From NCBI RefSeq assembly GCF_058153355.1, contig NZ_CM177019.1: a DNA stretch of 64,000 nt. One strand, given 5' to 3'. Below are positions 24,376 through 52,574 of the stretch, piece by piece (within the stretch, counting starts at the first letter, position 1; each line of letters opens with the position of its first letter). Both the position numbers and the translations under genes were made by a program. Below the pieces are notes generated by a model. The model was not told the origin of the DNA. It did not search any database and worked only from the letters and a program-made list of their open reading frames with translations.

Positions 24376-24461
24376 GGAGGAGCAATCCTCCCTTACCCTT
24401 ACTCACTAAATTAGGTCAAAGAATCAACGATGTCAATCAGGGCGATGCAGGTGTGTCGCCC

Positions 24462-25082: not shown

Positions 25083-25268
25083 AGGGAATCTCCGAGATGC
25101 CGCCGCAGGCTGTAACCCTTGAACCCTTGGTTCAAGGTGAATGTGTCGTCACAGTTTTAAGGCTTCTCGGACGGACCGAGCATGCTCACCAACCGCGGAG
25201 CGCCACATTCTTGTGGTATGAAATATCGGCTCAGGGGACTGGCCCGCTTGCGAACATCTCAGAGAAAT
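25083..25268 (-). ncRNA. ssrS: 6S RNA
   Basis: Reverse complement reads ATTTCTCTGAGATGTTCGCAAGCGGGCCAGTCCCCTGAGCCGATATTTCATACCACAAGAATGTGGCGCTCCGCGG...GGAGATTCCCT, the 6S RNA sequence. Confidence 0.93.
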
Positions 25269-25806: not shown

Positions 25807-26385
25807 ATGTCTATACAGAACGAAATGCCTGGTTACAACGAAATGAACCAGTATCTGAACCAACAAGGGACGGGTCTGACCCCTGCTGAGATGCATGGTT
25901 TAATCAGTGGGATGATATGTGGTGGTAACGATGACAGCTCATGGCTGCCACTGCTTCACGACCTGACGAACGAAGGCATGGCTTTCGGTCATGAGCTGGC
26001 ACAGGCATTGCGCAAAATGCACTCTGCTACCAGCGATGCCCTGCAGGATGACGGCTTCCTTTTTCAGCTTTATCTGCCTGATGGCGATGATGTCAGTGTT
26101 TTCGATCGTGCTGATGCGCTGGCAGGTTGGGTCAATCACTTCCTGCTTGGTCTTGGCGTTACGCAACCGAAGCTGGACAAAGTGACCGGCGAAACCGGTG
26201 AAGCCATCGACGATCTGCGTAACATCGCGCAGCTGGGCTACGACGAAGACGAAGATCAGGAAGAGCTGGAAATGTCGCTTGAAGAGATCATCGAGTACGT
26301 CCGTGTTGCCGCGCTGTTATGCCACGACACCTTTACTCATCCGCAACCGACCGCGCCAGAAGTACAAAAACCGACTCTACACTAA
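25807..26385 (+). CDS. ygfB: UPF0149 family protein
   Basis: About 192 aa; first gene of the ygfB-pepP-ubiH-ubiI cluster. Confidence 0.8.
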
Positions 26386-26410
26386 AAACAAAAAACGTAA
26401 GGAGAGTGTT

Positions 26411-27736: not shown

Positions 27737-28911
27737 GCGTAATCATCGTCGGTGGCGGCATGGCGGGCGCGACGCTGGCGCTGGCTATTTCCCGGTTAAG
27801 TCACGGGGCGCTGCCGGTACATTTGATTGAAGCGACTGCGCCAGAGTCACATGCTCATCCGGGCTTTGATGGACGAGCTATTGCGCTGGCGGCGGGTACT
27901 TGTCAGCAACTGGCGCGCATCGGCGTCTGGCAATCTCTGGCTGATTGCGCAACCGCCATCACCAGCGTGCATGTCAGCGATCGTGGTCATGCCGGATTCG
28001 TCACCCTCGCCGCAGAAGATTACCAACTGGCGGCGCTGGGGCAGGTTGTCGAATTGCATAATGTCGGGCAACGGCTGTTTGCATTGCTGCGCAAAGCACC
28101 TGGCGTAACGCTGCATTGTCCGGATCGCGTGGCTAACGTTGCCCGTGCTCAGAGTCACGTTGAAGTGACGCTGGAGAGTGGCAAGACGTTGACGGGGCGT
28201 GTGCTGGTCGCTGCTGATGGCACCCATTCCGCGTTAGCCACCGCGTGCGGTGTTGACTGGCAGCAGGAGCCTTACGAACAACTGGCCGTGATTGCGAACG
28301 TTGCGACTTCCGTTGCGCACGAAGGCCGGGCGTTTGAGCGTTTCACACAATATGGCCCGTTGGCGATGTTGCCGATGTCTGACGGACGCTGTTCGCTGGT
28401 CTGGTGCCATCCACTGGAACGGCGCGAAGAGGTGCTGTCGTGGAGCGACGAGACGTTTTGCCGTGAACTCCAGTCGGCCTTTGGCTGGCGACTTGGGAAA
28501 ATTACCCACGCTGGTAAACGCAGTGCTTACCCGCTGGCGTTAACCCGCGCCGCCAGACCTGTTACCCATCGTACCGTGCTGGTGGGCAATGCGGCGCAAA
28601 CCCTGCACCCGATTGCCGGGCAAGGATTTAACCTCGGTATGCGTGATGTGATGAGCCTTGCGGAAACGCTGACTCAGGCTCAGGCACGTGAAGATGACAT
28701 CGGTGATTACGGCGTATTGTGCCGTTATCAGCAGCGTCGGCAGAGCGATCGCGAAGCAACCATCGGTGTCACGGACAGCCTTGTACATCTTTTTGCTAAC
28801 CGTTGGGCACCGTTGGTTGTCGGGCGCAACCTCGGGCTGATGACGATGGAATTATTCACCCCAGCACGCGATGTGCTGGCGCAGCGCACCCTCGGTTGGG
28901 TGGCGCGTTAA
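27733..28911 (+). CDS. ubiH: 2-octaprenyl-6-methoxyphenol hydroxylase (FAD monooxygenase)
   Basis: 392-aa ORF with N-terminal GGGMAG FAD fingerprint; overlaps pepP stop by 4 bp. Confidence 0.9.
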   Translation: MSVIIVGGGMAGATLALAISRLSHGALPVHLIEATAPESHAHPGFDGRAIALAAGTCQQLARIGVWQSLADCATAITSVHVSDRGHAGFVTLAAEDYQLAALGQVVELHNVGQRLFALLRKAPGVTLHCPDRVANVARAQSHVEVTLESGKTLTGRVLVAADGTHSALATACGVDWQQEPYEQLAVIANVATSVAHEGRAFERFTQYGPLAMLPMSDGRCSLVWCHPLERREEVLSWSDETFCRELQSAFGWRLGKITHAGKRSAYPLALTRAARPVTHRTVLVGNAAQTLHPIAGQGFNLGMRDVMSLAETLTQAQAREDDIGDYGVLCRYQQRRQSDREATIGVTDSLVHLFANRWAPLVVGRNLGLMTMELFTPARDVLAQRTLGWVAR

Positions 28912-28933
28912 AGGCGGCTTTAAGGAATAAACA

Positions 28934-30136
28934 ATGCAAAGTGTTGATGTAGCCATTGTTGGCGGCGGCATGGTGGGGCTGGCGGTTGCCTGCGGCTTGC
29001 AGGGCAGCGGCTTACGCGTTGCCGTACTGGAGCAGCGCGTACCGGAACCTCTGGCGGCGGATGCACCACCACAACTGCGCGTTTCGGCTATCAATGCCGC
29101 CAGCGAAAAATTACTCACCCGTCTTGGCGTCTGGCAGGACATTCTCTCTCGTAGGGCCAGCTGTTATCACGGTATGGAAGTGTGGGACAAAGACAGCTTT
29201 GGTCACATTTCGTTTGACGATCAAAGCATGGGCTATAGCCATCTTGGGCATATCGTTGAAAATTCAGTCATTCACTACGCGCTGTGGAACAAAGCACAGC
29301 AGTCCTCAGATATCAGCCTGCTAGCCCCTGCAGAATTACAGCAAGTCGCCTGGGGAGAGAACGAAACCTTCCTGACGCTGAAAGACGGCAGCATGTTAAC
29401 GGCGCGTCTGGTAATTGGCGCAGACGGCGCTAATTCCTGGTTGCGCAACAAAGCCGATATTCCGCTGACTTTCTGGGATTATCTGCATCACGCGCTGGTG
29501 GCGACCATTCGCACGGAAGAACCGCATGATGCGGTGGCGCGACAGGTTTTCCATGGCGAAGGCATTCTGGCCTTTTTGCCGCTTAGCGATCCGCATCTTT
29601 GCTCAATTGTCTGGTCACTGTCGCCAGAGGAAGCACAGCGGATGCAGCAGGCAGGTGAAGACGAATTTAATCGCGAGTTAAATATCGCTTTTGATAATCG
29701 CCTGGGCTTATGCAAGGTTGAGAGTGAACGCCTGGTGTTCCCGCTGACTGGGCGTTATGCGCGCCAGTTTGCCGCGCACCGTCTGGCGCTGGTGGGCGAC
29801 GCCGCACATACCATTCACCCGTTGGCGGGGCAGGGGGTGAATCTCGGCTTTATGGATGCTGCAGAGCTGATTGCTGAACTGAAACGGTTGCATCGTCAGG
29901 GTAAAGACATCGGGCAGTACATTTACCTGCGTCGCTATGAGCGTAGCCGCAAGCACAGTGCGGCGCTGATGCTGGCAGGTATGCAGGGATTCCGCGATCT
30001 GTTTTCCGGGGCTAATCCGGCGAAAAAACTGCTGCGTGATATTGGCCTGAAACTGGCCGACACGCTTCCTGGCGTTAAACCACAACTTATCCGTCAGGCA
30101 ATGGGATTAAACGATTTGCCTGAATGGCTGCGCTAA
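28934..30136 (+). CDS. ubiI: 2-octaprenylphenol hydroxylase (FAD monooxygenase)
   Basis: 400-aa ORF, paralogue of ubiH (VisC). Confidence 0.9.
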   Translation: MQSVDVAIVGGGMVGLAVACGLQGSGLRVAVLEQRVPEPLAADAPPQLRVSAINAASEKLLTRLGVWQDILSRRASCYHGMEVWDKDSFGHISFDDQSMGYSHLGHIVENSVIHYALWNKAQQSSDISLLAPAELQQVAWGENETFLTLKDGSMLTARLVIGADGANSWLRNKADIPLTFWDYLHHALVATIRTEEPHDAVARQVFHGEGILAFLPLSDPHLCSIVWSLSPEEAQRMQQAGEDEFNRELNIAFDNRLGLCKVESERLVFPLTGRYARQFAAHRLALVGDAAHTIHPLAGQGVNLGFMDAAELIAELKRLHRQGKDIGQYIYLRRYERSRKHSAALMLAGMQGFRDLFSGANPAKKLLRDIGLKLADTLPGVKPQLIRQAMGLNDLPEWLR

Positions 30137-30583
30137 AAATTTCTCTTCTGCTGTTTATTTGATACCCATCACACTTTCATCTCCCGGTTTTTTCGCCGGG
30201 AGATTTTCCTCATTTGAAATAAACTAATTTCACCTGCGATTTCGCATTATATTTTCTAATGCCACGAATTTTTGATTTGGTGTTTTTTGACATTTTTTCA
30301 GTTCTTAATGTTGCCTTATTCAAATTAACTTTCTCATCTAATTATCTTTGTATAGAGATTGGTTCTTTTTTTGGTTTTTTATTCTGTTGTGATTTTGGCG
30401 TTTTTTAACCATAAGCTAATGTGATGATCAATTTTACCTTATGGTTAACAGTCTGTTTCGGTGGTAAGTTCAGGGAAAAGAGAACGATTGCGTTGGGGAC
30501 CGGGAGTGGCTCCGATGCTGGGTTTCGTGGTGATAATTTCACCATGAAAAAGTTGTCAGCCCCGCTTATTCAATGAGGACAAG
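30137..30583 (+). promoter_or_regulatory. gcvTHP promoter/regulatory region
   Basis: About 450-bp AT-rich upstream region with T-tracts; known in E. coli to carry GcvA/Lrp/PurR/CRP sites. Individual sites not mapped here. Confidence 0.5.
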
Positions 30584-31678
30584 ATGGCACAACAGACTCC
30601 TTTGTACGAACAACACACGCTTTGCGGCGCTCGCATGGTGGATTTCCACGGCTGGATGATGCCGCTGCATTACGGTTCGCAAATCGACGAACATCATGCG
30701 GTACGTACCGATGCCGGAATGTTTGATGTGTCACATATGACCATCGTCGATCTTCGCGGCAGTCGCACCAGGGAGTTTCTGCGTTATCTGCTGGCGAACG
30801 ATGTGGCGAAGCTCACCAAAAGCGGCAAAGCCCTTTACTCGGGGATGTTGAATGCCTCTGGCGGTGTGATAGATGACCTTATCGTCTACTACTTTACTGA
30901 AGATTTCTTCCGCCTCGTTGTTAACTCCGCCACCCGCGAAAAAGACCTCTCCTGGATTACCCAACACGCTGAACCCTTCGGTATCGAAATTACCGTTCGT
31001 GATGACCTTTCCATGATTGCCGTTCAAGGACCGAATGCGCAGGCAAAAGCTGCCACACTGTTTAATGATGCTCAGCGTCAGGCGGTGGAAGGGATGAAAC
31101 CCTTCTTTGGCGTGCAGGCTGGCGATCTGTTTATTGCCACCACCGGTTATACCGGTGAAGCGGGCTACGAAATTGCGCTGCCCAATGAAAAAGCGGCGGA
31201 TTTCTGGCGTGCGCTGGTGGAAGCGGGCGTTAAGCCCTGCGGTCTGGGCGCTCGTGACACACTGCGTCTGGAAGCGGGTATGAATCTTTATGGTCAGGAG
31301 ATGGACGAAACCATTTCTCCTTTAGCAGCCAACATGGGCTGGACCATCGCCTGGGAACCGACTGATCGTGACTTTATCGGTCGTGAAGCTCTGGAAGCGC
31401 AGCGTGAACATGGCACAGAAAAACTGGTTGGTCTGGTGATGACCGAAAAAGGCGTGCTGCGTAATGAACTGCCGGTACGTTTTACCGATGCGCAGGGCAA
31501 TCAGCATGAAGGCATTATCACCAGCGGTACTTTCTCCCCGACGTTGGGTTACAGCATTGCGCTGGCACGCGTGCCGGAAGGTATTGGCGAAACGGCGATT
31601 GTGCAAATTCGCAACCGTGAAATGCCGGTAAAAGTGACGAAACCTGTTTTTGTGCGTAACGGCAAAGCCGTCGCGTGA
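30584..31678 (+). CDS. gcvT: glycine cleavage system T protein (aminomethyltransferase)
   Basis: 364-aa ORF. Confidence 0.95.
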
Positions 31679-31700
31679 TTTACTTTTTGGAGATTAATTG

Positions 31701-32090
31701 ATGAGCAACGTACCAGCAGAACTGAAATACAGTAAAGAACACGAATGGCTGCGTAAAGAAGCCGACGGCACTTACACGGTTGGCATCACTGAGCACGCTC
31801 AGGAGCTGTTAGGCGATATGGTGTTTGTTGACCTGCCGGAAGTGGGCGCAACGGTAAGCGCGGGCGATGACTGCGCGGTTGCCGAATCGGTAAAAGCGGC
31901 GTCAGACATTTATGCGCCAGTAAGCGGTGAAATCATGGCGGTAAACGACGCACTGAGCGATTCTCCGGAACTGGTGAACAGCGAACCGTATGCAGGCGGC
32001 TGGATCTTCAAAATCAAAGCCAGCGATGAAAGCGAACTGGAATCACTGCTGGATGCGACCGCATACGAAGCATTGTTAGAAGACGAGTAA
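31701..32090 (+). CDS. gcvH: glycine cleavage system H protein
   Basis: 129-aa ORF starting [16 protein letters not shown]. Confidence 0.95.
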
Positions 32091-32208
32091 CAGCTTTATT
32101 CCTCTTCTGCGGAAGAGGATCAGGGTGAGGAACATTTACGCCTCACCCTCACTCTCTTCGCAAGGAGAGAGGTTCACAATTCACTGCACGTTTCAGGAAC
32201 CATCGCTC

Positions 32209-35082
32209 ATGACACAGACGTTAAGCCAGCTTGAAAACAGCGGCGCTTTTATTGAACGCCATATCGGACCGGACGCCGCGCAACAGCAAGAAATGCTGAA
32301 TGCCGTTGGCGCACAATCGTTAAACGCGCTGACCGGCCAGATTGTGCCGAAAGATATTCAGCTTGCGACCCCGCCGCAGGTTGGCGCACCGGCGACCGAA
32401 TACGCCGCGCTGGCGGAGCTCAAGGCTATTGCCAGTCGCAATAAACGCTTCACGTCTTACATCGGCATGGGTTACACCGCCGTGCAGCTACCGCCGGTTA
32501 TTCTGCGTAACATGCTGGAAAATCCGGGCTGGTATACCGCGTATACTCCGTATCAACCTGAAGTCTCCCAGGGCCGCCTTGAAGCACTGCTCAACTTCCA
32601 GCAGGTAACGCTGGATTTGACCGGGCTGGATATGGCTTCGGCTTCTCTTCTTGACGAAGCCACTGCTGCTGCCGAAGCAATGGCGATGGCAAAACGCGTC
32701 AGTAAACTGAAAAATGCCAACCGCTTCTTCGTTGCTTCTGACGTGCATCCGCAAACCTTAGATGTAGTACGTACACGCGCAGAAACCTTTGGTTTTGAAG
32801 TGATTGTCGACGATGCGCAAAAAGTTCTCGATCACCAGGACGTCTTCGGCGTGCTGTTACAGCAGGTTGGCACTACCGGTGAAATTCACGACTACACTGC
32901 GCTTATCAGCGAACTGAAATCACGCAAAATTGTGGTCAGCGTCGCCGCCGATATTATGGCGCTGGTGCTGTTAACCGCGCCGGGTAAACAGGGCGCGGAT
33001 ATTGTCTTTGGTTCGGCGCAACGCTTCGGCGTGCCGATGGGCTACGGTGGCCCACATGCGGCATTCTTTGCGGCGAAAGATGAATACAAACGCTCAATGC
33101 CGGGCCGTATTATTGGTGTATCGAAAGATGCTGCGGGCAATACCGCGCTGCGCATGGCGATGCAGACTCGCGAGCAACATATTCGCCGTGAGAAAGCGAA
33201 CTCCAACATTTGTACTTCCCAGGTACTGCTGGCAAACATCGCCAGCCTGTATGCCGTTTATCACGGCCCGGTTGGCCTGAAACGTATCGCTAATCGCATC
33301 CACCGTCTGACCGATATCCTGGCAGCGGGCCTGCAACAAAAAGGTCTGAAGCTGCGCCATGCGCACTATTTCGATACTTTGTGTGTGGAAGTGGCCGACA
33401 AAGCGGGCGTGCTGGCGCGTGCCGAAGCGGCTGAAATCAACCTGCGTAGCGATATTCTGAATGCGGTTGGGATCACCCTTGATGAAACCACCACGCGCGA
33501 AAACGTGATGCAGCTTTTCAGCGTACTGCTGGGCGATAATCACGGACTGGACATCGACACGCTGGACAAAGACGTGGCTCACGACAGCCGTTCTATTCAG
33601 CCTGCAATGCTGCGCGATGACGAAATTCTCACCCATCCGGTGTTTAATCGCTACCACAGCGAAACCGAAATGATGCGCTATATGCACTCGCTGGAGCGTA
33701 AAGATCTGGCGCTGAATCAGGCGATGATCCCGCTGGGTTCCTGCACCATGAAACTGAACGCCGCCGCCGAGATGATCCCAATCACCTGGCCGGAATTTGC
33801 CGAACTGCACCCGTTCTGCCCGCCGGAACAGGCCGAAGGTTATCAGCAGATGATCGCGCAACTGGCTGACTGGCTGGTGAAACTGACCGGTTACGACGCC
33901 GTCTGTATGCAGCCGAACTCTGGCGCTCAGGGCGAATACGCGGGGCTGCTGGCGATTCGTCATTATCATGAAAGCCGCAACGAAGGGCATCGCGATATCT
34001 GCCTGATCCCGGCTTCTGCGCATGGCACTAACCCGGCTTCCGCGCATATGGCAGGAATGCAGGTGGTGGTTGTGGCGTGTGATAAAAACGGCAACATCGA
34101 TCTGACTGACCTGCGCGCGAAAGCGGAGCAGGCGGGCGATAATCTCTCCTGCATTATGGTGACCTATCCTTCCACCCACGGCGTGTACGAAGAAACGATC
34201 CGTGAAGTGTGTGAAATCGTGCATCAGTTCGGCGGTCAGGTTTACCTTGATGGCGCGAACATGAACGCTCAGGTTGGCATCACTTCGCCGGGCTTTATTG
34301 GCGCGGACGTTTCGCACCTTAACCTGCATAAAACTTTCTGCATTCCGCACGGCGGTGGTGGTCCGGGTATGGGACCGATCGGTGTGAAAGCGCATTTGGC
34401 ACCGTTTGTTCCGGGTCATAGTGTGGTGCAAATCGAAGGCATGTTAACCCGTCAGGGCGCGGTTTCTGCGGCACCGTTCGGTAGCGCTTCTATTCTGCCA
34501 ATTAGCTGGATGTACATCCGCATGATGGGCGCAGAAGGGCTGAAAAAAGCAAGCCAGGTGGCAATTCTTAACGCCAACTATATTGCCAGCCGCCTGCAGG
34601 ATGCCTTCCCGGTGCTGTATACCGGTCGCGACGGTCGCGTGGCGCACGAATGTATTCTCGATATTCGCCCGCTGAAAGAAGAAACCGGCATCAGCGAGCT
34701 GGATATTGCCAAGCGCCTGATCGACTACGGTTTTCACGCGCCGACTATGTCGTTCCCGGTGGCGGGGACGCTGATGGTAGAACCGACTGAATCTGAAAGC
34801 AAAGTGGAACTGGATCGCTTTATCGATGCGATGCTGTCTATCCGCGCAGAAATCGACCAGGTGAAAGCCGGTGTTTGGCCGCTGGAAGATAACCCGCTAG
34901 TGAACGCGCCGCACATTCAGAGCGAACTGGTCGCCGAGTGGGCGCATCCGTACAGCCGTGAAGTTGCAGTATTCCCGGCAGGCGTGGCAGACAAATACTG
35001 GCCGACAGTGAAACGTCTGGATGATGTTTATGGCGACCGTAACCTGTTCTGCTCCTGCGTACCGATTAGCGAATACCAGTAA
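32209..35082 (+). CDS. gcvP: glycine dehydrogenase (decarboxylating), P protein
   Basis: Start at 32209 ([18 protein letters not shown]); 957 aa. Confidence 0.95.
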
Positions 35083-35104
35083 TTTACTGATCCGACTATC
35101 TTCT

Positions 35105-35307
35105 AAAGGCGCTTCGGCGCCTTTGACACTGATGTCAAACTCAACATTGCCTGATACACCTCGTTTATCAGGCCTACATAGTCTGTGCAATGTATTGAAT
35201 TTGCACGATTTTGTAGGCTGGATAAGGCGTTCACGCCGCATCCGGCATAATAAAAGCACTTTGTCATCAATAATTTGAAAGGCGCTTCGGCGCCTTTATT
35301 TTTTTAG
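35105..35307. repeat. BIME/REP cluster flanked by two copies of a terminator hairpin
   Basis: AAAGGCGCTTCGGCGCCTTT at 35105-35124 and again at 35277-35296, the second followed by a T-run; REP-like palindromes between them. Confidence 0.7.
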
Positions 35308-35315
35308 GAAAACAA

Positions 35316-36059
35316 ATGACTATAGCACTTGTGACCGGTGGCAGTCGCGGCATCGGGCGGGCAACTGCATTACTGTTGGCGCAAGAAGGATATACGGTGG
35401 CGGTTAATTATCAGCAAAACCGCCACGCAGCGCAGGAAGTTGTGAACTTAATAACTGAAGCAGGTGGCAAAGCGTTTGCGCTCCAGGCGGATATCAGTGA
35501 CGAAAATCAGGTCATCGCAATGTTTACAGCAATCGATCAGCACGATGAACCGCTAGCCGCGCTGGTCAATAACGCCGGGATCTTGTTTACCCAGTGCACC
35601 GTAGAAAACCTTACCGCAGAGCGAATCAACCGGGTACTTTCCACCAATGTGACGGGATATTTTCTCTGTTGCCGCGAGGCGGTAAAACGCATGGCGCTTA
35701 AAAATGGCGGTAATGGCGGTGCTATCGTCAATGTCTCTTCAGTGGCCTCACGGCTGGGATCTCCGGGGGAATACGTTGATTATGCGGCCTCGAAAGGGGC
35801 GATTGATACGTTAACCACCGGACTATCGCTGGAAGTCGCCGCGCAGGGGATCCGCGTTAACGGCGTGCGGCCAGGGTTTATTTATACCGAAATGCACGCC
35901 AGCGGTGGCGAGCCTGGACGCGTTGATCGCGTTAAGTCGAATATCCCCATGCAGCGTGGCGGACAGGCGGAAGAGGTCGCGCAGGCCATCGTCTGGCTGT
36001 TAAGTGATAAAGCCTCTTATGTCACGGGAAGTTTTATCGATTTGGCGGGTGGAAAATAA
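35316..36059 (+). CDS. ygfF: short-chain dehydrogenase/reductase
   Basis: 247-aa ORF with TGGSRGIG cofactor motif. Confidence 0.88.
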   Translation: MTIALVTGGSRGIGRATALLLAQEGYTVAVNYQQNRHAAQEVVNLITEAGGKAFALQADISDENQVIAMFTAIDQHDEPLAALVNNAGILFTQCTVENLTAERINRVLSTNVTGYFLCCREAVKRMALKNGGNGGAIVNVSSVASRLGSPGEYVDYAASKGAIDTLTTGLSLEVAAQGIRVNGVRPGFIYTEMHASGGEPGRVDRVKSNIPMQRGGQAEEVAQAIVWLLSDKASYVTGSFIDLAGGK

Positions 36060-36077
36060 AACAGGACAGTTGTCTGA

Positions 36078-36108
36078 CCGGATGCAACGCAACAAGTATT
36101 GCATCCGG
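36078..36108. terminator. bidirectional terminator between convergent ygfF and bglA
   Basis: 10-bp perfect stem CCGGATGCAA/TTGCATCCGG. Confidence 0.6.
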
Positions 36109-36120
36109 TACTTCATCGAC

Positions 36121-37581
<1,461 letters not shown>

Positions 37582-37598
37582 TTACAGGAAATAGTACC

Positions 37599-37910
37599 AT
37601 GCAGCCAAACGACATCACTTTTTTTCAACGTTTCCAGGATGACATTCTGGCTGGGCGTAAAACCATCACCATCCGCGACGAGTCTGAATCGCACTTCAAA
37701 ACGGGTGATGTGCTTCGTGTCGGGCGCTTTGAAGATGACGGTTATTTTTGCACGATTGAAGTCACTGCAACCTCAACCGTAACGCTGGATACACTGACGG
37801 AAAAACATGCAGAGCAGGAAAATATGCCCCTGACTGATCTGAAAAAGGTCATTGCCGATATCTATCCCGGCCAGACACAGTTTTATGTGATTGAATTTAA
37901 ATGCCTTTAA
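37599..37910 (+). CDS. yqfB: ASCH-domain protein (N4-acetylcytidine amidohydrolase)
   Basis: 103-aa ORF. Confidence 0.85.
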
Positions 37911-38070
37911 ATTGAACTCACGCCTGTTAGTTGAAATTTCGCATTTAATTTCATGATTTTTCGGAGATTAGTCTCAAATCAGAATTTATTTTAGCTAACA
38001 GGTGTTCACTGGAACTATTCTCAGTTACGCTGGAGAAGTGTTCACGTGCGTGTACGTTTCTCCGGAGTAA

Positions 38071-38733
<663 letters not shown>

Positions 38734-38745
38734 TGAGTGTGCCTT

Positions 38746-38776
<31 letters not shown>

Positions 38777-38806
38777 TCTACCCCGGTTTCCCAGATTGCA
38801 GGCATG

Positions 38807-40190
<1,384 letters not shown>

Positions 40191-40207
40191 CGGAGCGATA
40201 CAGAGAT

Positions 40208-41188
40208 TTACTCTTCGAGCGAATACGGCAGCGGCTCGATATGCAATGTATTCATATCGTCGCGTACGCGGAAGATGCTGTCCGGTTCCATATCGTTATT
40301 CATGACGACCTGTACCACGACCTGACCATCTTCCAGTTTTACCGCAGCCAGCACCGTACCGGTACGACGCCAGTTCTCGCCCATTTTCAGCTCTAAATCT
40401 TCACCCGCTTCCGGCAGTCGGCTGGCGCTACCTGCCAGCAGCCAGAGGGCACGTTTGTTGGCACCGCGGAATTTAGCTCGTGCCACCATCTCTTGTCCGG
40501 TATAACAGCCTTTTTTAAAGCTGATGCCGCCCAGCGCCTGGAGGTTGGTCGCCTGTGGGATAAACTGCCCGCTGTTGGCGGCATCAATCACCGGAAAACC
40601 CGCTTCAATGTTTAATGCCAGCCACTGTTGGCTATTGTTCAGTTCCGCTTCACCGCGCAGTTTATCGGTCAGCGTATTGGCGGTAGCTTCATCGGTTACG
40701 ATCAGGAAACGTTCTGCTGGGTGTTCAAACCATAGCAGGGTAGTCGCACCTTCTCTGATAACCTGCTTTTCCTTCGAAGGTAATTCACTAAAGAGGTTAG
40801 CCAGCGCAGCGCGTGCCTGAAAACCGGCAACACCAAGCAGCACACGTTCATCGTCTGGCGCGATGGTCACTTTAGAGAACACCGCATATTTTTTCAGTTC
40901 AGTCAGTTGCGACTCGCGCACGCTGCGCCGTTCAATCCACGCAAAGCCATCGCCGTCGCGGAACAGACGTAAATTGCTCCACATTTTACCTTTGGCGTCG
41001 CAATGGGCGGCGAGCAGGTGCTGATCTTCTGTCATCTGGCTGACATCTGCTGTCACCTGACCCTGCATATATTTTTCGCTGTCCGTGCCAGTAATGGTGG
41101 CAAGCGCCCAGTCATCAAGCGTCATCAGCGTCAGCGGTAAACGGGCAGAAGCCGTAGGCTGACGGGGAGGAAAAGGTGTAAAAGCCAT
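40208..41188 (-). CDS. ygfZ: folate-binding tRNA-modification protein
   Basis: Start at 41188 ([19 protein letters not shown]); 326 aa. Confidence 0.9.
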
Positions 41189-41427
41189 AATGGAGTCCTG
41201 TTTTACAAACGGCGTATTTATGACTAATGGTAAAAGAGCTATGAGGCAATGCAAGTGCTTTCACTACGCGATCTGTGCCTTCTGATATGCTTTGCGAGGC
41301 GACTTCCAAAAAAATGAAGCCCTTGAAATATTGTGGGTTAATTTCGCGATCGCGATTGTGTTTACTGATATTCCCGCAAAAGAAGTCGAAAAACACGTTA
41401 CAATAGCCTGGTACTGGATTTTCGTGA

Positions 41428-42094
<667 letters not shown>

Positions 42095-42133
42095 AGATGA
42101 CGGCAAAGGCTGTGTGCTAAGCCGTCAGTGACA

Positions 42134-42655
42134 TCAGGCGTAATGCTCTGCCATTTCGTTGAGGATTTGCTCGCACCAGCTCTGAATACGCTCGTCGCTA
42201 AGGTCATACTGGTTAGTTTCGTCCAGTGCCAGACCCACGAACAGTTGCCCGTCAGCAATCACCGGTTTCGGGCTGGTAAACTCATATCCTTCCGTTGGCC
42301 AGTAGCCGACGAACTTCACGCCTTTGGTCGAGAGTTTGTCATGCAGCATGCCGAGCGCATCGAGGAACCACTCGCCGTACCCCAGTTGATCGCCAAGCCC
42401 ATACAGCGCAACAATTTTACCTTCGAGATTCAGGTCGTCGAGCTGATCCCAGACGGCTTCCCAGTCTTCCTGGATTTCGCCAAAATCCCAGGTCGGGATA
42501 CCCAGAATGAGCACATCGTACTGCTCCATTAATTTCGGGGAGTCGTCCTTGAGGTTATGTAAGGTCACCAGTTCTGGGCCGATAATATCGCGGATTTTTT
42601 CTGCCGCCATTTCGGTATAACAGGTGCTGGAACCATAAAAAAGACCCATATTCAT
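42134..42655 (-). CDS. fldB: flavodoxin 2
   Basis: 173-aa ORF. Confidence 0.9.
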
Positions 42656-42766
42656 AACGTAAGCTTCTCGATTCTGCTGTGGCTTTTGCGGCTAGTGTAT
42701 CAGAATCGCTTTAGTCACGGCACAATAAGGCATAATGGATCAAATGAGTGACCATAAGGGGCGCAA

Positions 42767-43663
42767 GTGAAACAGGATCTGGCACGCATCGAGCAGTTTC
42801 TTGATGCTCTGTGGCTGGAAAAAAATCTGGCTGAAAATACGTTGAACGCATACCGTCGCGATCTGTCAATGATGGTGGAGTGGTTGCATCACCGCGGGTT
42901 GACGCTGGCGACGGCGCAAAGTGACGATTTGCAGGCATTACTGGCAGAACGGCTGGAGGGCGGGTATAAAGCCACCAGCTCAGCGCGTTTGCTGAGTGCA
43001 GTGCGACGATTGTTCCAGTATCTTTATCGCGAAAACTTTCGTGAAGACGATCCCAGCGCGCATCTGGCTTCGCCGAAATTGCCCCAGCGTTTGCCAAAAG
43101 ATTTAAGCGAAGCGCAGGTCGAACGATTATTACAGGCACCATTAATTGATCAGCCACTGGAGCTGCGCGATAAAGCCATGCTTGAAGTGTTGTATGCTAC
43201 CGGGCTGCGTGTCTCTGAACTGGTCGGGCTGACAATGAGTGATATCAGCCTGCGTCAGGGCGTAGTGCGGGTCATTGGTAAAGGCAACAAAGAACGCCTT
43301 GTGCCGTTAGGTGAAGAGGCGGTTTACTGGCTGGAAACTTATCTGGAACACGGGCGACCGTGGTTGCTAAACGGTGTGTCGATTGACGTGTTGTTTCCCA
43401 GCCAGCGCGCGCAGCAGATGACGAGACAAACCTTCTGGCACCGCATTAAACATTATGCTGTGCTGGCGGGGATCGACAGCGAAAAGCTGTCACCGCATGT
43501 GTTGCGTCACGCCTTTGCCACTCATTTATTAAATCATGGTGCGGATTTACGCGTGGTTCAGATGCTACTGGGCCACAGCGATCTTTCCACCACGCAAATT
43601 TATACGCATGTCGCTACCGAGCGTCTGCGGCAACTTCATCAACAGCATCACCCGCGGGCGTGA
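42767..43663 (+). CDS. xerD: site-specific tyrosine recombinase XerD
   Basis: 298-aa ORF with GTG start; C-terminal HxxR...Y catalytic motifs. Confidence 0.93.
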   Translation: MKQDLARIEQFLDALWLEKNLAENTLNAYRRDLSMMVEWLHHRGLTLATAQSDDLQALLAERLEGGYKATSSARLLSAVRRLFQYLYRENFREDDPSAHLASPKLPQRLPKDLSEAQVERLLQAPLIDQPLELRDKAMLEVLYATGLRVSELVGLTMSDISLRQGVVRVIGKGNKERLVPLGEEAVYWLETYLEHGRPWLLNGVSIDVLFPSQRAQQMTRQTFWHRIKHYAVLAGIDSEKLSPHVLRHAFATHLLNHGADLRVVQMLLGHSDLSTTQIYTHVATERLRQLHQQHHPRA

Positions 43664-43687
43664 TGTCTGAAAAGAACGGGAAGATTT

Positions 43688-44398
43688 ATGAAGAAAGGTT
43701 TTATGTTATTTACGTTGTTGGCGGCGTTTTCTGGTTTTGCTCAGGCTGATGACGCGGCAATTCAACAAACGTTAGCCAAAATGGGCATCAAAAGCAGCGA
43801 TATTCAGCCTGCACCCGTGGCTGGCATGAAGACAGTTCTGACTAACAGCGGTGTGTTGTACATCACCGATGACGGTAAACATATCATTCAGGGGCCAATG
43901 TATGACGTTAGCGGAACGGCTCCGGTCAATGTCACCAATAAGATGCTGTTAAAGCAACTGAACGCGCTTGAAAACGAGATGATCGTTTATAAAGCGCCGC
44001 AGGAAAAACACGTCATTACCGTGTTTACTGATATTACCTGTGGTTACTGCCACAAACTGCATGAGCAAATGGCAGACTACAACGCGCTGGGGATCACCGT
44101 GCGTTATCTTGCTTTCCCTCGCCAGGGGCTGGAGAGCCAGGCTGAGCAACAAATGAAAGCCATCTGGTGTGCGAAAGATAAAAAGAAAGCGTTTGATGAT
44201 GTGATGGCGGGTAAAGCTGCCACTCCGGCAAGTTGCGATATCGATATTGCCGATCATTACGCACTTGGCGTCCAGCTTGGCGTTAGTGGCACTCCGGCAA
44301 TTGTGCTGAGCAATGGCACACTTGTTCCGGGTTACCAGCCGCCGAAAGAGATGAAAGAATTCCTCGACGAACACCAAAAAATGACCAGCGGTAAATAA
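43688..44398 (+). CDS. dsbC: periplasmic disulfide isomerase
   Basis: 236-aa ORF with signal peptide and CGYC active site. Confidence 0.93.
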   Translation: MKKGFMLFTLLAAFSGFAQADDAAIQQTLAKMGIKSSDIQPAPVAGMKTVLTNSGVLYITDDGKHIIQGPMYDVSGTAPVNVTNKMLLKQLNALENEMIVYKAPQEKHVITVFTDITCGYCHKLHEQMADYNALGITVRYLAFPRQGLESQAEQQMKAIWCAKDKKKAFDDVMAGKAATPASCDIDIADHYALGVQLGVSGTPAIVLSNGTLVPGYQPPKEMKEFLDEHQKMTSGK

Positions 44399-44403
44399 TT
44401 CGC

Positions 44404-46137
44404 GTGAAACAACAGATACAACTTCGTCGCCGTGAAGTCGATGAAACGGCAGACTTGCCCGCTGAATTGCCTCCCTTGCTGCGCCGTTTATATGCCAGCC
44501 GGGGAGTACGCAGTGCGCAAGAACTGGAACGTAGTGTAAAAGGTATGCTGCCCTGGCAGCAACTGAGCGGCGTCGAAAAGGCCGTTGAGATCCTTTACAA
44601 CGCTTTTCGCGAAGGAACGCGGATTATGGTGGTCGGTGACTTCGACGCCGACGGTGCCACCAGCACGGCTCTAAGCGTGCTGGCGATGCGCTCGCTTGGT
44701 TGCAGCAATATCGACTACCTGGTACCAAACCGTTTCGAAGACGGTTACGGCTTAAGCCCGGAAGTGGTCGATCAGGCCCATGCCCGTGGCGCGCAGTTAA
44801 TTGTCACGGTGGATAACGGCATTTCCTCCCATGCGGGGGTTGAACATGCTCGATCGTTGGGCATTCCGGTTATTGTTACCGATCACCATTTGCCGGGCGA
44901 AACATTACCCGCGGCGGAAGCGATCATTAACCCTAACTTGCGCGACTGCAATTTCCCGTCGAAATCACTGGCAGGCGTGGGTGTGGCGTTTTATTTAATG
45001 CTGGCGCTGCGCACCTTTTTGCGTGATCAGGGCTGGTTTGATGAGCGCGGCATCGCAATTCCTAACCTGGCAGAACTGCTGGATCTGGTCGCGTTGGGGA
45101 CAGTGGCGGACGTCGTGCCGCTGGACGCTAATAATCGCATTCTGACCTGGCAGGGGATGAGTCGCATCCGTGCCGGAAAGTGCCGTCCAGGGATTAAAGC
45201 GTTGCTGGAAGTGGCCAACCGCGATGCGCAAAAACTCGCCGCCAGCGATTTAGGTTTTGCGCTGGGGCCACGTCTCAATGCAGCTGGGAGACTGGATGAT
45301 ATGTCCGTTGGTGTGGCGCTGTTGCTGTGCGACAACATCGGCGAAGCGCGAGTACTGGCAAATGAACTCGATGCGCTAAACCAGACGCGAAAAGAGATCG
45401 AACAGGGAATGCAGGTTGAAGCCCTGACCCTGTGCGAGAAACTGGAGCGCAGCCGCGACACGCTACCCGGCGGGCTGGCAATGTATCACCCGGAATGGCA
45501 TCAGGGCGTGGTTGGTATTCTGGCTTCGCGTATTAAAGAGCGTTTTCACCGTCCGGTTATCGCTTTTGCGCCTGCGGGTGACGGTACGCTGAAAGGTTCC
45601 GGTCGCTCCATTCAGGGGCTGCATATGCGTGATGCGCTGGAGCGGCTAGACACACTCTACCCCGGCATGATGCTGAAGTTTGGCGGTCATGCGATGGCGG
45701 CAGGCCTGTCGCTGGAAGAGGATAAATTCGAACTCTTTCAGCAACGGTTTGGCGAACTGGTTACTGAGTGGCTGGACCCTTCGCTATTGCAAGGCGAAGT
45801 GGTGTCAGACGGTCCGCTAAGCCCAGCCGAAATGACCATGGAAGTGGCGCAGCTGCTGCGCGATGCTGGCCCGTGGGGGCAGATGTTCCCGGAGCCGCTG
45901 TTTGACGGTCATTTCCGTCTGCTGCAACAGCGACTGGTGGGTGAACGTCATTTGAAAGTCATGGTCGAACCGGTCGGCGGCGGTCCGCTGCTGGACGGTA
46001 TTGCTTTTAATGTCGATACCGCCCTCTGGCCGGATAACGGCGTGCGCGAAGTGCAACTGGCTTACAAGCTGGATATCAACGAGTTTCGTGGCAACCGCAG
46101 CCTGCAAATTATCATCGACAATATCTGGCCAATTTAG
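44404..46137 (+). CDS. recJ: single-stranded-DNA-specific 5'-3' exonuclease RecJ
   Basis: 577-aa ORF with GTG start; DHH motif. Confidence 0.93.
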   Translation: MKQQIQLRRREVDETADLPAELPPLLRRLYASRGVRSAQELERSVKGMLPWQQLSGVEKAVEILYNAFREGTRIMVVGDFDADGATSTALSVLAMRSLGCSNIDYLVPNRFEDGYGLSPEVVDQAHARGAQLIVTVDNGISSHAGVEHARSLGIPVIVTDHHLPGETLPAAEAIINPNLRDCNFPSKSLAGVGVAFYLMLALRTFLRDQGWFDERGIAIPNLAELLDLVALGTVADVVPLDANNRILTWQGMSRIRAGKCRPGIKALLEVANRDAQKLAASDLGFALGPRLNAAGRLDDMSVGVALLLCDNIGEARVLANELDALNQTRKEIEQGMQVEALTLCEKLERSRDTLPGGLAMYHPEWHQGVVGILASRIKERFHRPVIAFAPAGDGTLKGSGRSIQGLHMRDALERLDTLYPGMMLKFGGHAMAAGLSLEEDKFELFQQRFGELVTEWLDPSLLQGEVVSDGPLSPAEMTMEVAQLLRDAGPWGQMFPEPLFDGHFRLLQQRLVGERHLKVMVEPVGGGPLLDGIAFNVDTALWPDNGVREVQLAYKLDINEFRGNRSLQIIIDNIWPI

Positions 46138-46227
46138 CGTCATATTATCTATAAAAAAGAGCGTGGATTGGGTACAATCCCGCTCTTATCACCGCATTTT
46201 GACTAGCTCAATAAAAGAAATCAGACC

Positions 46228-47326
46228 ATGTTTGAAATTAATCCGGTAAATAATCGCATTCAGGACCTCACGGAACGCTCCGACGTTCTTAGGGGGTATC
46301 TTTGACTACGACGCCAAGAAAGAGCGTCTGGAAGAAGTAAACGCCGAGCTGGAACAGCCGGATGTCTGGAACGAACCCGAACGCGCACAGGCGCTGGGTA
46401 AAGAGCGTTCCTCCCTCGAAGCCGTTGTCGACACCCTCGACCAAATGAAACAGGGGCTGGAAGATGTTTCTGGTCTGCTGGAGCTGGCTGTAGAAGCTGA
46501 CGACGAAGAAACCTTTAACGAAGCCGTTGCTGAACTCGACGCCCTGGAAGAAAAACTGGCGCAGCTTGAGTTCCGTCGTATGTTCTCTGGCGAATATGAT
46601 AGCGCCGACTGCTACCTCGATATTCAGGCAGGTTCTGGCGGTACGGAAGCACAGGACTGGGCGAGCATGCTTGAGCGTATGTATCTGCGCTGGGCTGAAT
46701 CGCGTGGTTTCAAAACTGAAATCATCGAAGAGTCGGAAGGTGAAGTGGCGGGTATTAAATCCGTGACTATCAAAATCTCCGGCGATTACGCTTACGGCTG
46801 GCTGCGTACTGAAACCGGCGTTCACCGCCTGGTGCGCAAGAGCCCGTTTGACTCCGGCGGTCGTCGCCACACGTCGTTCAGCTCCGCGTTTGTTTACCCG
46901 GAAGTCGATGATGATATCGATATCGAAATCAATCCGGCGGATCTGCGCATCGACGTTTATCGCGCATCCGGCGCGGGTGGTCAGCACGTTAACCGTACCG
47001 AATCTGCGGTGCGTATTACTCACATCCCAACCGGGATTGTGACCCAATGCCAGAACGACCGTTCCCAGCACAAGAACAAAGACCAGGCCATGAAGCAGAT
47101 GAAAGCGAAGCTTTATGAACTGGAGATGCAGAAGAAAAATGCCGAGAAACAGGCGATGGAAGATAACAAATCTGACATCGGCTGGGGCAGCCAGATTCGT
47201 TCTTATGTCCTTGATGACTCCCGCATTAAAGATCTGCGTACCGGGGTAGAAACTCGTAACACGCAGGCAGTGCTGGACGGCAGCCTGGATCAATTTATCG
47301 AAGCAAGTTTGAAAGCAGGGTTATGA
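46228..47326 (+). CDS. prfB: peptide chain release factor 2, requires programmed +1 frameshift
   Basis: Frame-0 ATG at 46228 runs 25 codons to in-frame TGA at 46303-46305 within AGGGGGTATCTTTGAC; +1 frame from 46304 continues to 47326 and contains the SPF and GGQ motifs. Confidence 0.93.
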
Positions 47327-47335
47327 GGAACCAAC

Positions 47336-48853
47336 ATGTCTGAACAACACGCACAGGGCGCTGACGCGGTAGTCGATCTTAACAATGAACTGAAAACGCG
47401 TCGTGAGAAGCTGGCGAACCTGCGTGAGCAGGGGATTGCCTTCCCGAACGATTTCCGTCGCGATCATACCTCTGACCAATTGCACGCAGAATTCGACGGC
47501 AAAGAAAACGAAGAACTGGAAGCGCTGAACATCGAAGTTGCCGTTGCTGGCCGCATGATGACCCGCCGTATTATGGGTAAAGCGTCTTTCGTTACCCTGC
47601 AGGATGTGGGGGGCCGCATTCAGCTGTACGTTGCTCGTGACGATCTGCCGGAAGGCGTTTACAACGAGCAGTTCAAAAAATGGGACCTCGGCGATATCCT
47701 CGGCGCGAAAGGTAAACTGTTCAAAACCAAAACCGGCGAACTGTCTATCCACTGCACCGAGCTGCGTCTGCTGACCAAAGCACTGCGTCCGCTGCCGGAC
47801 AAATTCCACGGTTTGCAGGATCAGGAAGCGCGCTATCGTCAGCGTTATCTGGATCTCATTTCTAACGATGAATCCCGCAACACCTTTAAAGTGCGTTCGC
47901 AGATCCTCTCTGGCATTCGCCAGTTCATGGTGAATCGTGGCTTTATGGAAGTTGAAACGCCGATGATGCAGGTGATCCCAGGCGGCGCGGCGGCGCGTCC
48001 GTTTATCACCCATCACAATGCGCTGGATCTCGACATGTACTTGCGTATCGCGCCGGAACTGTACCTCAAGCGTCTGGTGGTTGGTGGCTTCGAGCGTGTA
48101 TTCGAAATCAACCGTAACTTCCGTAACGAAGGTATCTCCGTACGTCATAACCCAGAGTTCACCATGATGGAACTCTATATGGCTTACGCTGATTACAAAG
48201 ATCTGATCGAGCTGACCGAATCGCTGTTCCGTACTCTGGCACAGGATATTCTCGGTAAGACCGAAGTGACCTACGGCGACGTGACGCTGGACTTCGGTAA
48301 ACCGTTCGAAAAACTGACCATGCGTGAAGCGATCAAGAAATATCGCCCGGAAACCGACATGGCGGATCTGGACAACTTCGACTCTGCGAAAGCGATTGCT
48401 GAATCTATCGGCATCCACGTTGAGAAGAGCTGGGGTCTGGGCCGTATCGTTACCGAGATCTTCGAAGAAGTGGCAGAAGCACATCTGATCCAGCCGACCT
48501 TCATTACTGAATATCCGGCAGAAGTTTCTCCGCTGGCGCGTCGTAACGACGTTAACCCGGAAATCACTGACCGCTTTGAGTTCTTCATTGGTGGTCGTGA
48601 AATCGGTAACGGCTTTAGCGAGTTGAATGACGCGGAAGATCAGGCGCAGCGCTTCCTGGATCAGGTTGCCGCGAAAGACGCAGGCGACGACGAAGCGATG
48701 TTCTACGACGAAGATTACGTCACCGCACTGGAACACGGCTTACCGCCGACAGCAGGTCTGGGAATTGGTATCGACCGTATGGTAATGCTGTTCACCAACA
48801 GCCATACCATCCGCGACGTTATTCTGTTCCCGGCGATGCGTCCGGTGAAATAA
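47336..48853 (+). CDS. lysS: lysyl-tRNA synthetase (constitutive)
   Basis: 505-aa [28 protein letters not shown]... Confidence 0.95.
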
Positions 48854-48888
48854 GCATTACGTTATGCTCACAACCCCGGCAAATGTCG

Positions 48889-50314
48889 TAATGCCAGTCA
48901 GTTAAGCAACTGACTGGCTCTTTTTCGGGGCTGTGGGGTATTTCCAGGGCCTCTCCTTTACCACTCTCGGGAAGGCCCTTTCCCTTCTTGTCGGTAATTT
49001 CACAAGTTGTCCCATACTTGCAAGATCGCGCATCAGCTCCGGTATACGTCCCGGTGAAGCGCCCTGCAATGTCATCAGCATTCTCATCACCATTCCGCAT
49101 GATTCTGAGAAACTCAGTTGATTCGGCCAGTAACCTTTCAGATGTTCCGCCATTTTAATCATCTGATATCTCACCAGATTATAAGCCAGTAAGACACCCC
49201 ACAGCTCTTGCTCCACAAGCTCCGGCTTTTTACTTCTCAGCGTCAGCCTGCTCAGTTGCATCGTCTGTTTTATCTCCCTGTATCCCAGTTCGATTTCCCA
49301 GCGATGACTGTACAGATCCGCCATTTCTCCTCCGGGGAAGCGCATGGCGTCCGTCATCGACGTCAGCAGATGGCAGACTTTTCCTTTGCGCGTCACGGTC
49401 AGCAGGCGGGCTGTCACTTCATTTCCCAGTCCCGGCCACTTTTTTCGTGCCTGCGGGCTGGTTTTCAGCTTCACCAGATGATCGCCTTTACCCAGTTTTC
49501 TGATCTCTTCATATTGCGCTCCCTTTCTGAGAGGTATCATCCAGTGGCGGTGTTCTCCCGCCAGGCTCCAGGCATTTAACAGTCCCAGTGAGTAATAACC
49601 TTTATCCATTAACGTCAGAGTGTTATCGCCGGTTTGTTCTATAAGTTGCTCAGCAAGCTCATTTTCGCTGTTCTTCATCGTGCCGAAGGCTGCAGCCGTC
49701 AGCAGATGGCTGGTCAGTTCCATCTGGCAGACCATTTTGACCTGCGGGTAGAGCGCCGGGTTCCCGGCATGTGTCTGGCGGGGGAAGGCTGCATCGTTCT
49801 CTGGTGTATCCGGTGTGCGCCAGAACACACCATCGATGGCCAGCAGGGTCAGGCCGCACCAGTGCGGATGCGGCGTGGCGTTATGCCAGAGCTGCGCTGT
49901 TTTCGTGAACACGCGGCGGACAGCCTCACTTCCCAGGCGCTGGCGGGCCTGAATAACGGCACTGGGGGCAACGAAGGGGCGATTGCCCGGCAGCATGATG
50001 TCCAGGCGATTCACAATCTGGTGAAGAGGTTCTTTACGCTCAAGCGCCATGCCAACAATACACCAGACCATCATTTCGAGGGGAAGACGGCGCTTGCGTA
50101 GCGTTACAGTACCTGATTCGGCAAGGCAACGAGAGATGAGTTCGGGGTCGAGGTAATCCCCCAGAGAAGTCAGTGGGTTACGCAGAGAATCGTAACGGGA
50201 TACCAGATCAAGAGCCTGTCCAATGTGCATAAAAAAATCCGGAAACAAGTGAGCGTTTCCGGATTCTTACACAGCCACTGGATCGGTCAACTGATCCTTA
50301 ACTGATCGGCATTA
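48889..50314 (-). mobile_element. IS4 insertion sequence
   Basis: 1426 bp; 18-bp imperfect terminal inverted repeats TAATGCCAGTCAGTTAAG (48889-48906) and CTTAACTGATCGGCATTA (50297-50314); flanked by 12-bp direct repeat CGGCAAATGTCG at 48877-48888 and 50315-50326. Confidence 0.92.
48902..50230 (-). CDS. insG: IS4 transposase
   Basis: Start at ATG 50230 ([14 protein letters not shown]); 442 aa; the ORF-track start at 50248 is not ATG. Confidence 0.9.
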
Positions 50315-50333
50315 CGGCAAATGTCGGGGTTTT

Positions 50334-50877
50334 TTATTTAAGCTGGGTAAATGCAGATAATCGTTTTCTGGCTTCGCGATTTGTCGCCTGCATCACCATC
50401 CACGGACTGAACGCCCACGGCGTGGCATCAATACCGCGTAAAACCGCTGCTAAATCACACCATTGATAATCCATCACTTCATCATCGTTGATCTGTAACG
50501 CACTGGTCGTGCGTGCGGCAAATACCGGACATACTTCATTTCTACAATGCCATTCGGATCGGTGGCGCGATAGCGAAAGTCAGGATAGATTCAGGAGGTG
50601 TAATTTCCACGCCAAGCTCATAACGGCAACGGCGGATCACCGCGTCTTCGTTGCTTTCTCCCAGTTGTGGGTGCCCACAAACCGAGTTAGTCCACACGCC
50701 CGGCCATGCTTTTTTGCTAAGGGCGCGGCGGGTAACTAATAATTGCCCTTTGGCATTAAACAGCCAGCAGGAGAACGCGAGATGTAAGAGAGTGTCTGCC
50801 GTGTGTGCGGCATACTTTTCCAGCGTACCCGTGGGAACTCCCTGTGCATTCAATAAAATGACGTGTTCCGTTTGCAT
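50334..50877 (-). pseudogene. idi: isopentenyl-diphosphate isomerase, disrupted by frameshifts
   Basis: N-terminal 111 codons (50542-50877) end at a premature stop; the Idi-like C-terminus ([13 protein letters not shown]...[17 protein letters not shown]) continues in a different frame to the stop at 50334-50336. Locus is 544 bp against 549 expected for a 182-aa gene. Confidence 0.7.
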
Positions 50878-50998
50878 AATTTCTCACATGTAATTCTAAT
50901 CACTCATCATTATAGATAATTGAAGAGTGAAATGATTAACCAAGTGAGCGTTTATCGACAACCGCCCGTTTTGAGCGGATGTCGACAGGTAAAACCAT

Positions 50999-51124
50999 TT
51001 AAAAAAGCAGCATCATATATTTGAAGCGACTTTCAATGGCCATTGCAACACAGTCAGAAATGACAGGAATAGAGAGAGTAAAAAGCAACAACAGACTGAA
51101 TATAGCGCGCATTAAAAGATTCAT
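50999..51124 (-). CDS. small hydrophobic protein (41 aa), possibly coupled to uacT
   Basis: ATG at 51122-51124 lies 1 nt after the uacT stop (TAATATG) with GGAG 9 nt upstream; product MNLLMRAIFSLLLLFTLSIPVISDCVAMAIESRFKYMMLLF; below the ORF-track length cut-off. Confidence 0.4.
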   Translation of the reverse strand: MNLLMRAIFSLLLLFTLSIPVISDCVAMAIESRFKYMMLLF

Positions 51125-51125
51125 A

Positions 51126-52574
51126 TTATTCTCCATGCTCATTTTTCTTCAGCTTGCGCATCAGAAGCCACATACGTACTGTCCTGACTTTTAAATCTTT
51201 ATCAGAGACGGATTCCTTCACCAGATCAGCATGATGCTGATAGCCATTAAAGAAGACGTTCAGCGCAACGGCGCTAAGGGTTGCGAGCATAATGCCGCTA
51301 TGCAGCAACGGTTGCAGTACGGCCGGTAACTTAGAAAAGAAATCGTGAGAGAGCGTCGGAGTCATGCCAACGCCGAGACTGATCGCCACAATATAGAGGT
51401 TGTAACGGTTAGTGGTGTAGTTACAGCGCGACAGAATTCGAATCCCCGTCGCCAGTACCATGCCGAACATCACCAGCCCTGCGCCGCCAAGCACAAATTG
51501 CGGAATCGAGGCTACCAGCACCGCCATTTTGGGCACCATGCCAAACATGATTAATATGATCCCCGAAGAAATACACACCCAGCGACTATGAACGCGAGTC
51601 ACGCTAACCAGGCCAACGTTTTGAGAAAATGACGTGTGGGGGAAGCTGTTAAACGTTCCGCCTATCATTGTCCCTACACCATCGACACGCAGCCCGCGAA
51701 TAATATCGTGCGAAGAGAGTTTACGACCGACTATTTCACCCAGTGCCAGGAACATCCCCATCGACTCGATAAACACGATGATTAACACAGCGGTCATGGT
51801 TAGAATAGAAACGGGGTCAAATACCGGCATACCAAACGACATTGGGGTGACAATCGCAAACCACGAAGCATCATGTAGCCCGGACAAATTGACTTCATTC
51901 ATCATCCACGAAAGTAAAAAGCCAAATACAATCCCCAGTAATACGGCGACGTTGGACATAAATCCTTTCGCATAGCGAGTAATGAGCAAGATAAAAATTA
52001 AGACGGCAAAGGAGATACCTAAATAAACGGGATTACCATATTGCGGATTCCCTTCACCTCCAGCGGCCCAGTCAATACCGACCTGAATAATGCTAAGCCC
52101 GATAGAAGTAATAACCACACCGGTAACCAGTGGCGGGAATAAAGGCATTAAGCGACCGATAAGTGGTGCTAATAATGTGGTGATAAATCCCGCGGCGATA
52201 GTGGCACCAAATATCCCCAGCAGGCCGATATCCGGGTTCATGCCAATGGCTATCATTGGTGTTACAGCAGCAAAGGTTACCGACATAATCACCGGCAGAC
52301 GGATCCCCATAAAGCGGCCGATACCGATACATTGTAATAATGTGACGATCCCGCAGCAAAAGAGATCCGAGCTAATGAGCATCGCAATAGCTTCTTTTGA
52401 GAGGCCCAGTCGGTCACCAATCATAAGAGGAACAGCGACTGCACCTGCGTACATTACAAGGACGTGTTGCAGACCGAGTATGATCAGCTTTCCTGGTGAT
52501 AATATGCGGTCAACCTCATCAGTTGGGCGGTCTTGCCCTGAAGATGAGGGAAGTTGGGAATCTATGGCGCTCAT
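51126..52574 (-). CDS. uacT: uric acid:proton symporter (NCS2 family)
   Basis: Start at 52574 (MSAIDSQLPSSSGQDR); 482 aa. Confidence 0.88.
   Translation of the reverse strand: MSAIDSQLPSSSGQDRPTDEVDRILSPGKLIILGLQHVLVMYAGAVAVPLMIGDRLGLSKEAIAMLISSDLFCCGIVTLLQCIGIGRFMGIRLPVIMSVTFAAVTPMIAIGMNPDIGLLGIFGATIAAGFITTLLAPLIGRLMPLFPPLVTGVVITSIGLSIIQVGIDWAAGGEGNPQYGNPVYLGISFAVLIFILLITRYAKGFMSNVAVLLGIVFGFLLSWMMNEVNLSGLHDASWFAIVTPMSFGMPVFDPVSILTMTAVLIIVFIESMGMFLALGEIVGRKLSSHDIIRGLRVDGVGTMIGGTFNSFPHTSFSQNVGLVSVTRVHSRWVCISSGIILIMFGMVPKMAVLVASIPQFVLGGAGLVMFGMVLATGIRILSRCNYTTNRYNLYIVAISLGVGMTPTLSHDFFSKLPAVLQPLLHSGIMLATLSAVALNVFFNGYQHHADLVKESVSDKDLKVRTVRMWLLMRKLKKNEHGE

Follow-up and report, generated by a model that had tools for sequence, protein, structure and literature searches.

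A prfB locus with the canonical motif for programmed +1 frameshifting in an Escherichia genome

Programmed frameshifting in prfB and related systems

The programmed frameshift in prfB, which encodes RF2, belongs to a long-known feedback loop that matches the level of RF2 to the demand for termination. A premature stop codon was found in 64% of 12,753 surveyed genomes, and the elements that accompany it, an AGGGGG, a 3-nt spacer, CTTT, the TGA and a following C, are reported to be hyper-conserved (PMC12421855). For E. coli, the frameshift, the fall in its efficiency as RF2 rises and the peptide that spans the junction have all been established experimentally (PMC12421855 and references there). 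The prfB gene of E. coli K-12 (Craigen and Caskey; PMC12421855) carries the cassette CTT AGG GGG TAT CTT TGA C, with the premature stop at codon 26 of a gene for a protein of 365 aa that lies in the operon context recJ-prfB-lysS. The locus described here, which lies in a 64,000-nucleotide stretch of DNA analysed as a whole (hereafter the window), shares all of these features with K-12, and nothing differs at the site itself.

Two further groups of systems help to delimit the site. The TTTTTGA variants of prfB, found in Aquificota and some low-GC Gammaproteobacteria, have the same gene, Shine-Dalgarno (SD)-like element, spacing and TGA, but in these variants tRNA-Phe slips on a poly-T tract (PMC12421855), whereas the window has the canonical CTT, read by tRNA-Leu. 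The -1 frameshifts of dnaX and of IS3-family transposases (e.g., IS2, which is annotated in E. coli MB06101) likewise combine an internal SD-like stimulator with a slippery sequence. They differ in that the shift takes place on a heptanucleotide of the form X XXY YYZ, usually with a downstream hairpin or pseudoknot, and the stop codon does not act as a sensor, while the shift in prfB is +1, dependent on the stop codon and autoregulated by the gene's own product.

We consider the site in the window to be the autoregulatory programmed +1 ribosomal frameshift of prfB (RF2) in an Escherichia genome, with a probability of roughly 98%. Such a site is already known, textbook and ordinary, and this instance adds nothing new to the picture of the feedback loop; it does bear on how the gene is annotated and on how its two reading frames are to be read.

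The cassette and the product of the joined frames

The prfB gene lies on the + strand and begins with the ATG at 46228-46230. Its frame-0 segment, codons 1-25 (46228..46302), aligns with the first 25 residues of the solved RF2 chains from E. coli and ends in the cassette, which reads AGGGGG-TAT-CTT-TGA-C directly in the sequence (46291-46306, + strand throughout). The internal SD-like AGGGGG (AGG GGG, encoding Arg22-Gly23; 46291-46296) matches the published consensus, and the 3-nt spacer TAT (Tyr24; 46297..46299) sets it at the published distance from the slippery sequence (PMC12421855). The latter, CTTT (46300..46303), is made up of the Leu25 codon CTT, which is codon 25 when counted from the ATG at 46228 and occupies 46300-46302, and the T of the premature TGA. 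This TGA is an in-frame, RF2-specific stop at codon 26 in the frame-0 translation (46303..46305), and the C directly 3' of it (46306), which creates the UGA-C context, doubles as the third base of GAC, the codon with which the +1-frame segment opens. The preliminary description had reported an in-frame UGA at codon 26 in the context CUU UGA C with AGGGGG three nucleotides upstream of the CUU; its coordinates are exact and the arrangement agrees with the published definition (PMC12421855).

All of the sequence-level defining features of the prfB frameshift family were tested and are present, and it is their combination that sets the site apart. When both strands of the 64-kb window were searched for AGGGGGNNNCTTTGAC with at most one mismatch, the single match was the prfB site, with 0 mismatches, against a chance expectation of 0.05 (100 shuffles). 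By itself, the heptamer CTTTGAC is found at 12 places in the window, so the non-random feature is the full cassette, in frame inside the RF2 gene. A similar caution applies to the SD-like element. A duplex of AGGGGG with the 3' tail of 16S rRNA is predicted at -12.6 kcal/mol, in a crude calculation for which the tail was the established E. coli sequence, the window being without an rRNA gene. On the same scale the initiation region of prfB itself (46205-46230) reaches -1.3 kcal/mol, i.e., it has almost no SD complementarity, and the energies computed along prfB include a second strong anti-SD match, at 46972-46976 (-12.8 kcal/mol). Because this second match scores as well as AGGGGG, SD-likeness alone is not diagnostic and the combination of elements is; the value of -12.6 kcal/mol is only supportive of a frameshift site. 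The AGG of the element is the sole AGG among the 134 Arg codons of xerD, dsbC, recJ, prfB and lysS, a pattern consistent with selection for the nucleotide sequence itself and not for the protein. A scan of the whole window at Rfam gathering thresholds gave no family at the prfB site, as one would expect of a motif that is short, linear and devoid of secondary structure.

Downstream of the cassette, the +1-frame segment (46304..47326, + strand) comprises codons 26-365 and the terminal TGA at 47324-47326, and aligns to RF2 residues 26-365. The joining of frame 0 (46228-46302) to this segment, which the preliminary description had put forward as its own check, yields a product of 365 aa that aligns with solved E. 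coli RF2 chains over residues 1-365, with the junction ...LRGYL|DYDAKK... free of gaps. The best structural match, 1gqe_A (E = 8.1e-241), differs by one substitution. The joined product scores 525.9 bits against the NCBIfam model TIGR00020 for prfB (cutoff 370; the match begins at residue 12) and falls below the cutoffs of the NCBIfam models for prfA (RF1). It contains the Pfam domains PCRF (residues 31-219) and RF-1 (228-337), and the alignment to RF2 shows that the SPF tripeptide of stop-codon recognition (205-207) and the catalytic GGQ motif (250-252) are intact. Residue 246 (codon 46963-46965) is Ala by alignment to the solved chains, in contrast to the Thr of K-12; Ala246 is what E. coli B and most bacteria carry, while the less active Thr246 is peculiar to K-12 (PMC5373646).

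Among the decodings compared, the +1 junction (LRGYL-DYDAKK) alone reproduces the RF2 sequence, and full-length RF2 can be encoded solely by joining frame-0 codons 1-25 to the +1 frame at the GAC at 46304. The comparison bears directly on the proposal that UGA-26 is recoded in some other way, through readthrough or suppression, insertion of selenocysteine, or a shift by -1 or -2, to which UGA-C lends some plausibility as a leaky stop context (PMC12421855). Continued reading in frame 0 gives a sequence unrelated to RF2 that stops after 31 codons, a -1 shift meets a stop after 12 further codons, and a -2 shift would produce GYLFDYD, with an extra Phe that is not in the RF2 chains; we give such recoding almost no credence.

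Reading frames, annotation and conservation

No stop interrupts the frame of 46304 between 46250 and the TGA at 47324-47326, and the first ATG, GTG or TTG in this frame is at 46445, which is why a mechanical ORF list gives a truncated RF2 of 293 aa (46445-47326, in the same frame as 46304). The preliminary description had ascribed this truncated ORF to the frameshift, and the lack of a start codon in the +1 frame before 46445 bears it out: the site accounts for what a naive ORF caller returns, a 25-codon ORF and an RF2 cut short to 293 aa. The same output is precisely what would be listed if the locus held two cistrons and no frameshift, with a 25-codon leader ORF (46228-46305) followed by a shorter RF2 that starts at the ATG at 46445. 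The sequence between the two ORFs argues otherwise. The +1 frame from 46304 to 46444, although it has no start codon, encodes RF2 residues 26-72 in perfect alignment with the full-length chains, the frame-0 peptide corresponds to RF2 residues 1-25, and the matches to both PCRF (from residue 31) and TIGR00020 (from residue 12) begin upstream of Met73. An arrangement of two cistrons is therefore exceedingly improbable.

In RefSeq, the homologous coordinates of two E. coli genomes hold a CDS in two pieces that bears the note 'programmed frameshift', and the annotated E. coli locus L001 (3129..4227) is the exact counterpart of 46228..47326 in the window. The right annotation here is likewise a two-piece CDS, join(46228..46302, 46304..47326), and not a pseudogene. 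Taken with the identity of the joined product and the agreement of its elements with the published motif, the RefSeq note sustains the description of the locus as a classic autoregulatory RF2 frameshift site.

A break in the reading frame may also arise from an error of sequencing or assembly, or from a real inactivating indel, in which case prfB would be a misread single-frame gene or a pseudogene. Single-base differences in the homopolymer do occur in databases, as the assembly of E. coli BH100 substr. MG2014 has four G in place of five. This G4 form is a singleton, however (1 genome at >=99% identity). A single copy of the 1.3-kb locus occurs in 5,425 of 5,426 complete E. coli genomes, and the 69 nt centred on the site, with the G5/TGA arrangement of the window, are 100% identical in 4,410 of the 5,425, with 95-99% identity in the rest. 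The same broken-frame arrangement recurs in at least 120 other species, and the premature stop is widespread in the published survey cited above. RF2 is moreover an essential factor. Conservation effectively refutes the error and pseudogene readings, whose chance of being correct we regard as negligible.

In the BH100 substr. MG2014 assembly (NZ_CP024650.2; locus L123, 261-378, homologous to 46291-46296 of the window), AGGGG, a form that none of the others among 5,419 genomes has, puts prfB into one continuous frame (…LRGIFDYD…), and the RefSeq annotation of this gene has no frameshift. The G4 may reflect a mistake in assembling the homopolymer, or this laboratory substrain may truly have lost autoregulation.

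Beyond E. coli, the exact 19-mer CTTAGGGGGTATCTTTGAC was found in species-representative genomes of at least 120 other species, against a chance expectation of ~2 (our own arithmetic: 298 Gb x 2 strands / 4^19). The matches listed are mostly from Gammaproteobacteria, with others from Betaproteobacteria (Sutterella, Pelistega, Methylotenera) and from MAGs labelled Eremiobacteraeota and Deltaproteobacteria. At all 120 of the 120 loci listed, the product of frame 0 and the +1 frame matches RF2; the stop lies near codon 25-28, in most cases at 25-26, and the +1 ORFs that follow it have a median of 340 aa. The upstream flanks of these loci have diverged, with a third-codon-position identity to the window of 0.21-0.63. 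Since the loci were retrieved by exact match, conservation within the 19-mer is 100% by construction, and the only informative measures are how many species carry it and how far their flanks have diverged. In its nucleotides, the cassette is conserved across E. coli as well as in at least 120 further species.

Error or pseudogenization, two cistrons, readthrough and -1 or -2 shifts were thus all rejected on conservation and on the alignment to RF2. For the programmed +1 frameshift, the steps can be proposed by analogy with E. coli. The ribosome would decode CUU (Leu25) in the P site, with the TAT (Tyr24) codon in the E site and the weak stop UGA-C in the A site (PMC12421855). When RF2 is abundant, UGA-26 would be recognised and a 25-residue peptide released (PMC12421855). 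When RF2 is scarce, the ribosome would pause at UGA-C, and pairing of AGGGGG with the 16S anti-SD would destabilise or displace the E-site tRNA; the peptidyl-tRNA-Leu could then slip from CUU to UUU, and with GAC (Asp26) now in the A site translation would go on through the remaining 340 codons (PMC12421855). In this manner RF2 would set its own rate of synthesis via negative feedback. That the frameshift takes place in vivo in this genome, and with an efficiency that falls as RF2 rises, is what sequence identity with E. coli would lead one to expect. It is very unlikely that the set-point of the feedback, i.e., the frameshift efficiency, differs measurably from that of K-12, or that the 25-residue peptide released on termination serves some function in its own right; the sequence holds no pointer to either, the cassette and its 69-nt surroundings being those of most E. 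coli.

The surrounding operon and genome

The genes at the locus are ordered xerD-dsbC-recJ-prfB-lysS. From the annotation of homologous loci, lysS (lysine-tRNA ligase; 47336..48853, + strand) begins 9 nt 3' of prfB in the same orientation and so comes after the frameshift gene in translation. A consensus scan of 45900-49000 for promoters and terminators gave nothing near prfB beyond the expectation from shuffles; it contained one weak promoter-like site inside the end of recJ (46088-46115), and no terminator-like site in the prfB-lysS interval, the first on the + strand being at 48893-48918.

The wider window shows several levels of identity to E. coli. Compared with strain MB06101, whose chromosome is typical of E. 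coli, the region 9763-59818 has a uniform identity of ~96.3%. For 26000-46000 the highest identity of any full-length E. coli match is 95.9%, yet 43100-51833 is 99.3-100% identical to strain 24A16CRGN010. Identity of >=99% over prfB is found in just 10 of 5,425 E. coli genomes. These mixed levels suggest that the genome may belong to a divergent Escherichia lineage or may have undergone recombination between lineages.

At Rfam gathering thresholds the window further contains a Sib antitoxin RNA (24286-24436, - strand; the annotation of homologous E. coli places it beside ibsC), 6S RNA (ssrS; 25085-25268, - strand), the sRNA ES036 (35170-35212, - strand) and an naRNA4/REP-type element (40030-40107) that scores on both strands. 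Mobile elements are also present. Between trhA and ygfZ there is a gene for an IS621 (IS110-like) transposase (38856-39836, - strand) that E. coli MB06101 also has, and 9763-11057 matches the same IS621 element in the opposite orientation with 97.6% identity. Closer to prfB, an IS4 element occupies 48889-50314, between lysS and idi, with its transposase ORF at 48902-50248 on the - strand. When the region is aligned with an E. coli sequence that lacks the insertion, the alignment splits at 48888/50315 and the two subject segments overlap by 12 nt, indicating that the target site was duplicated. This IS4 arrangement is shared by 3 of 5,426 complete E. coli genomes, which are ~97.5% identical.
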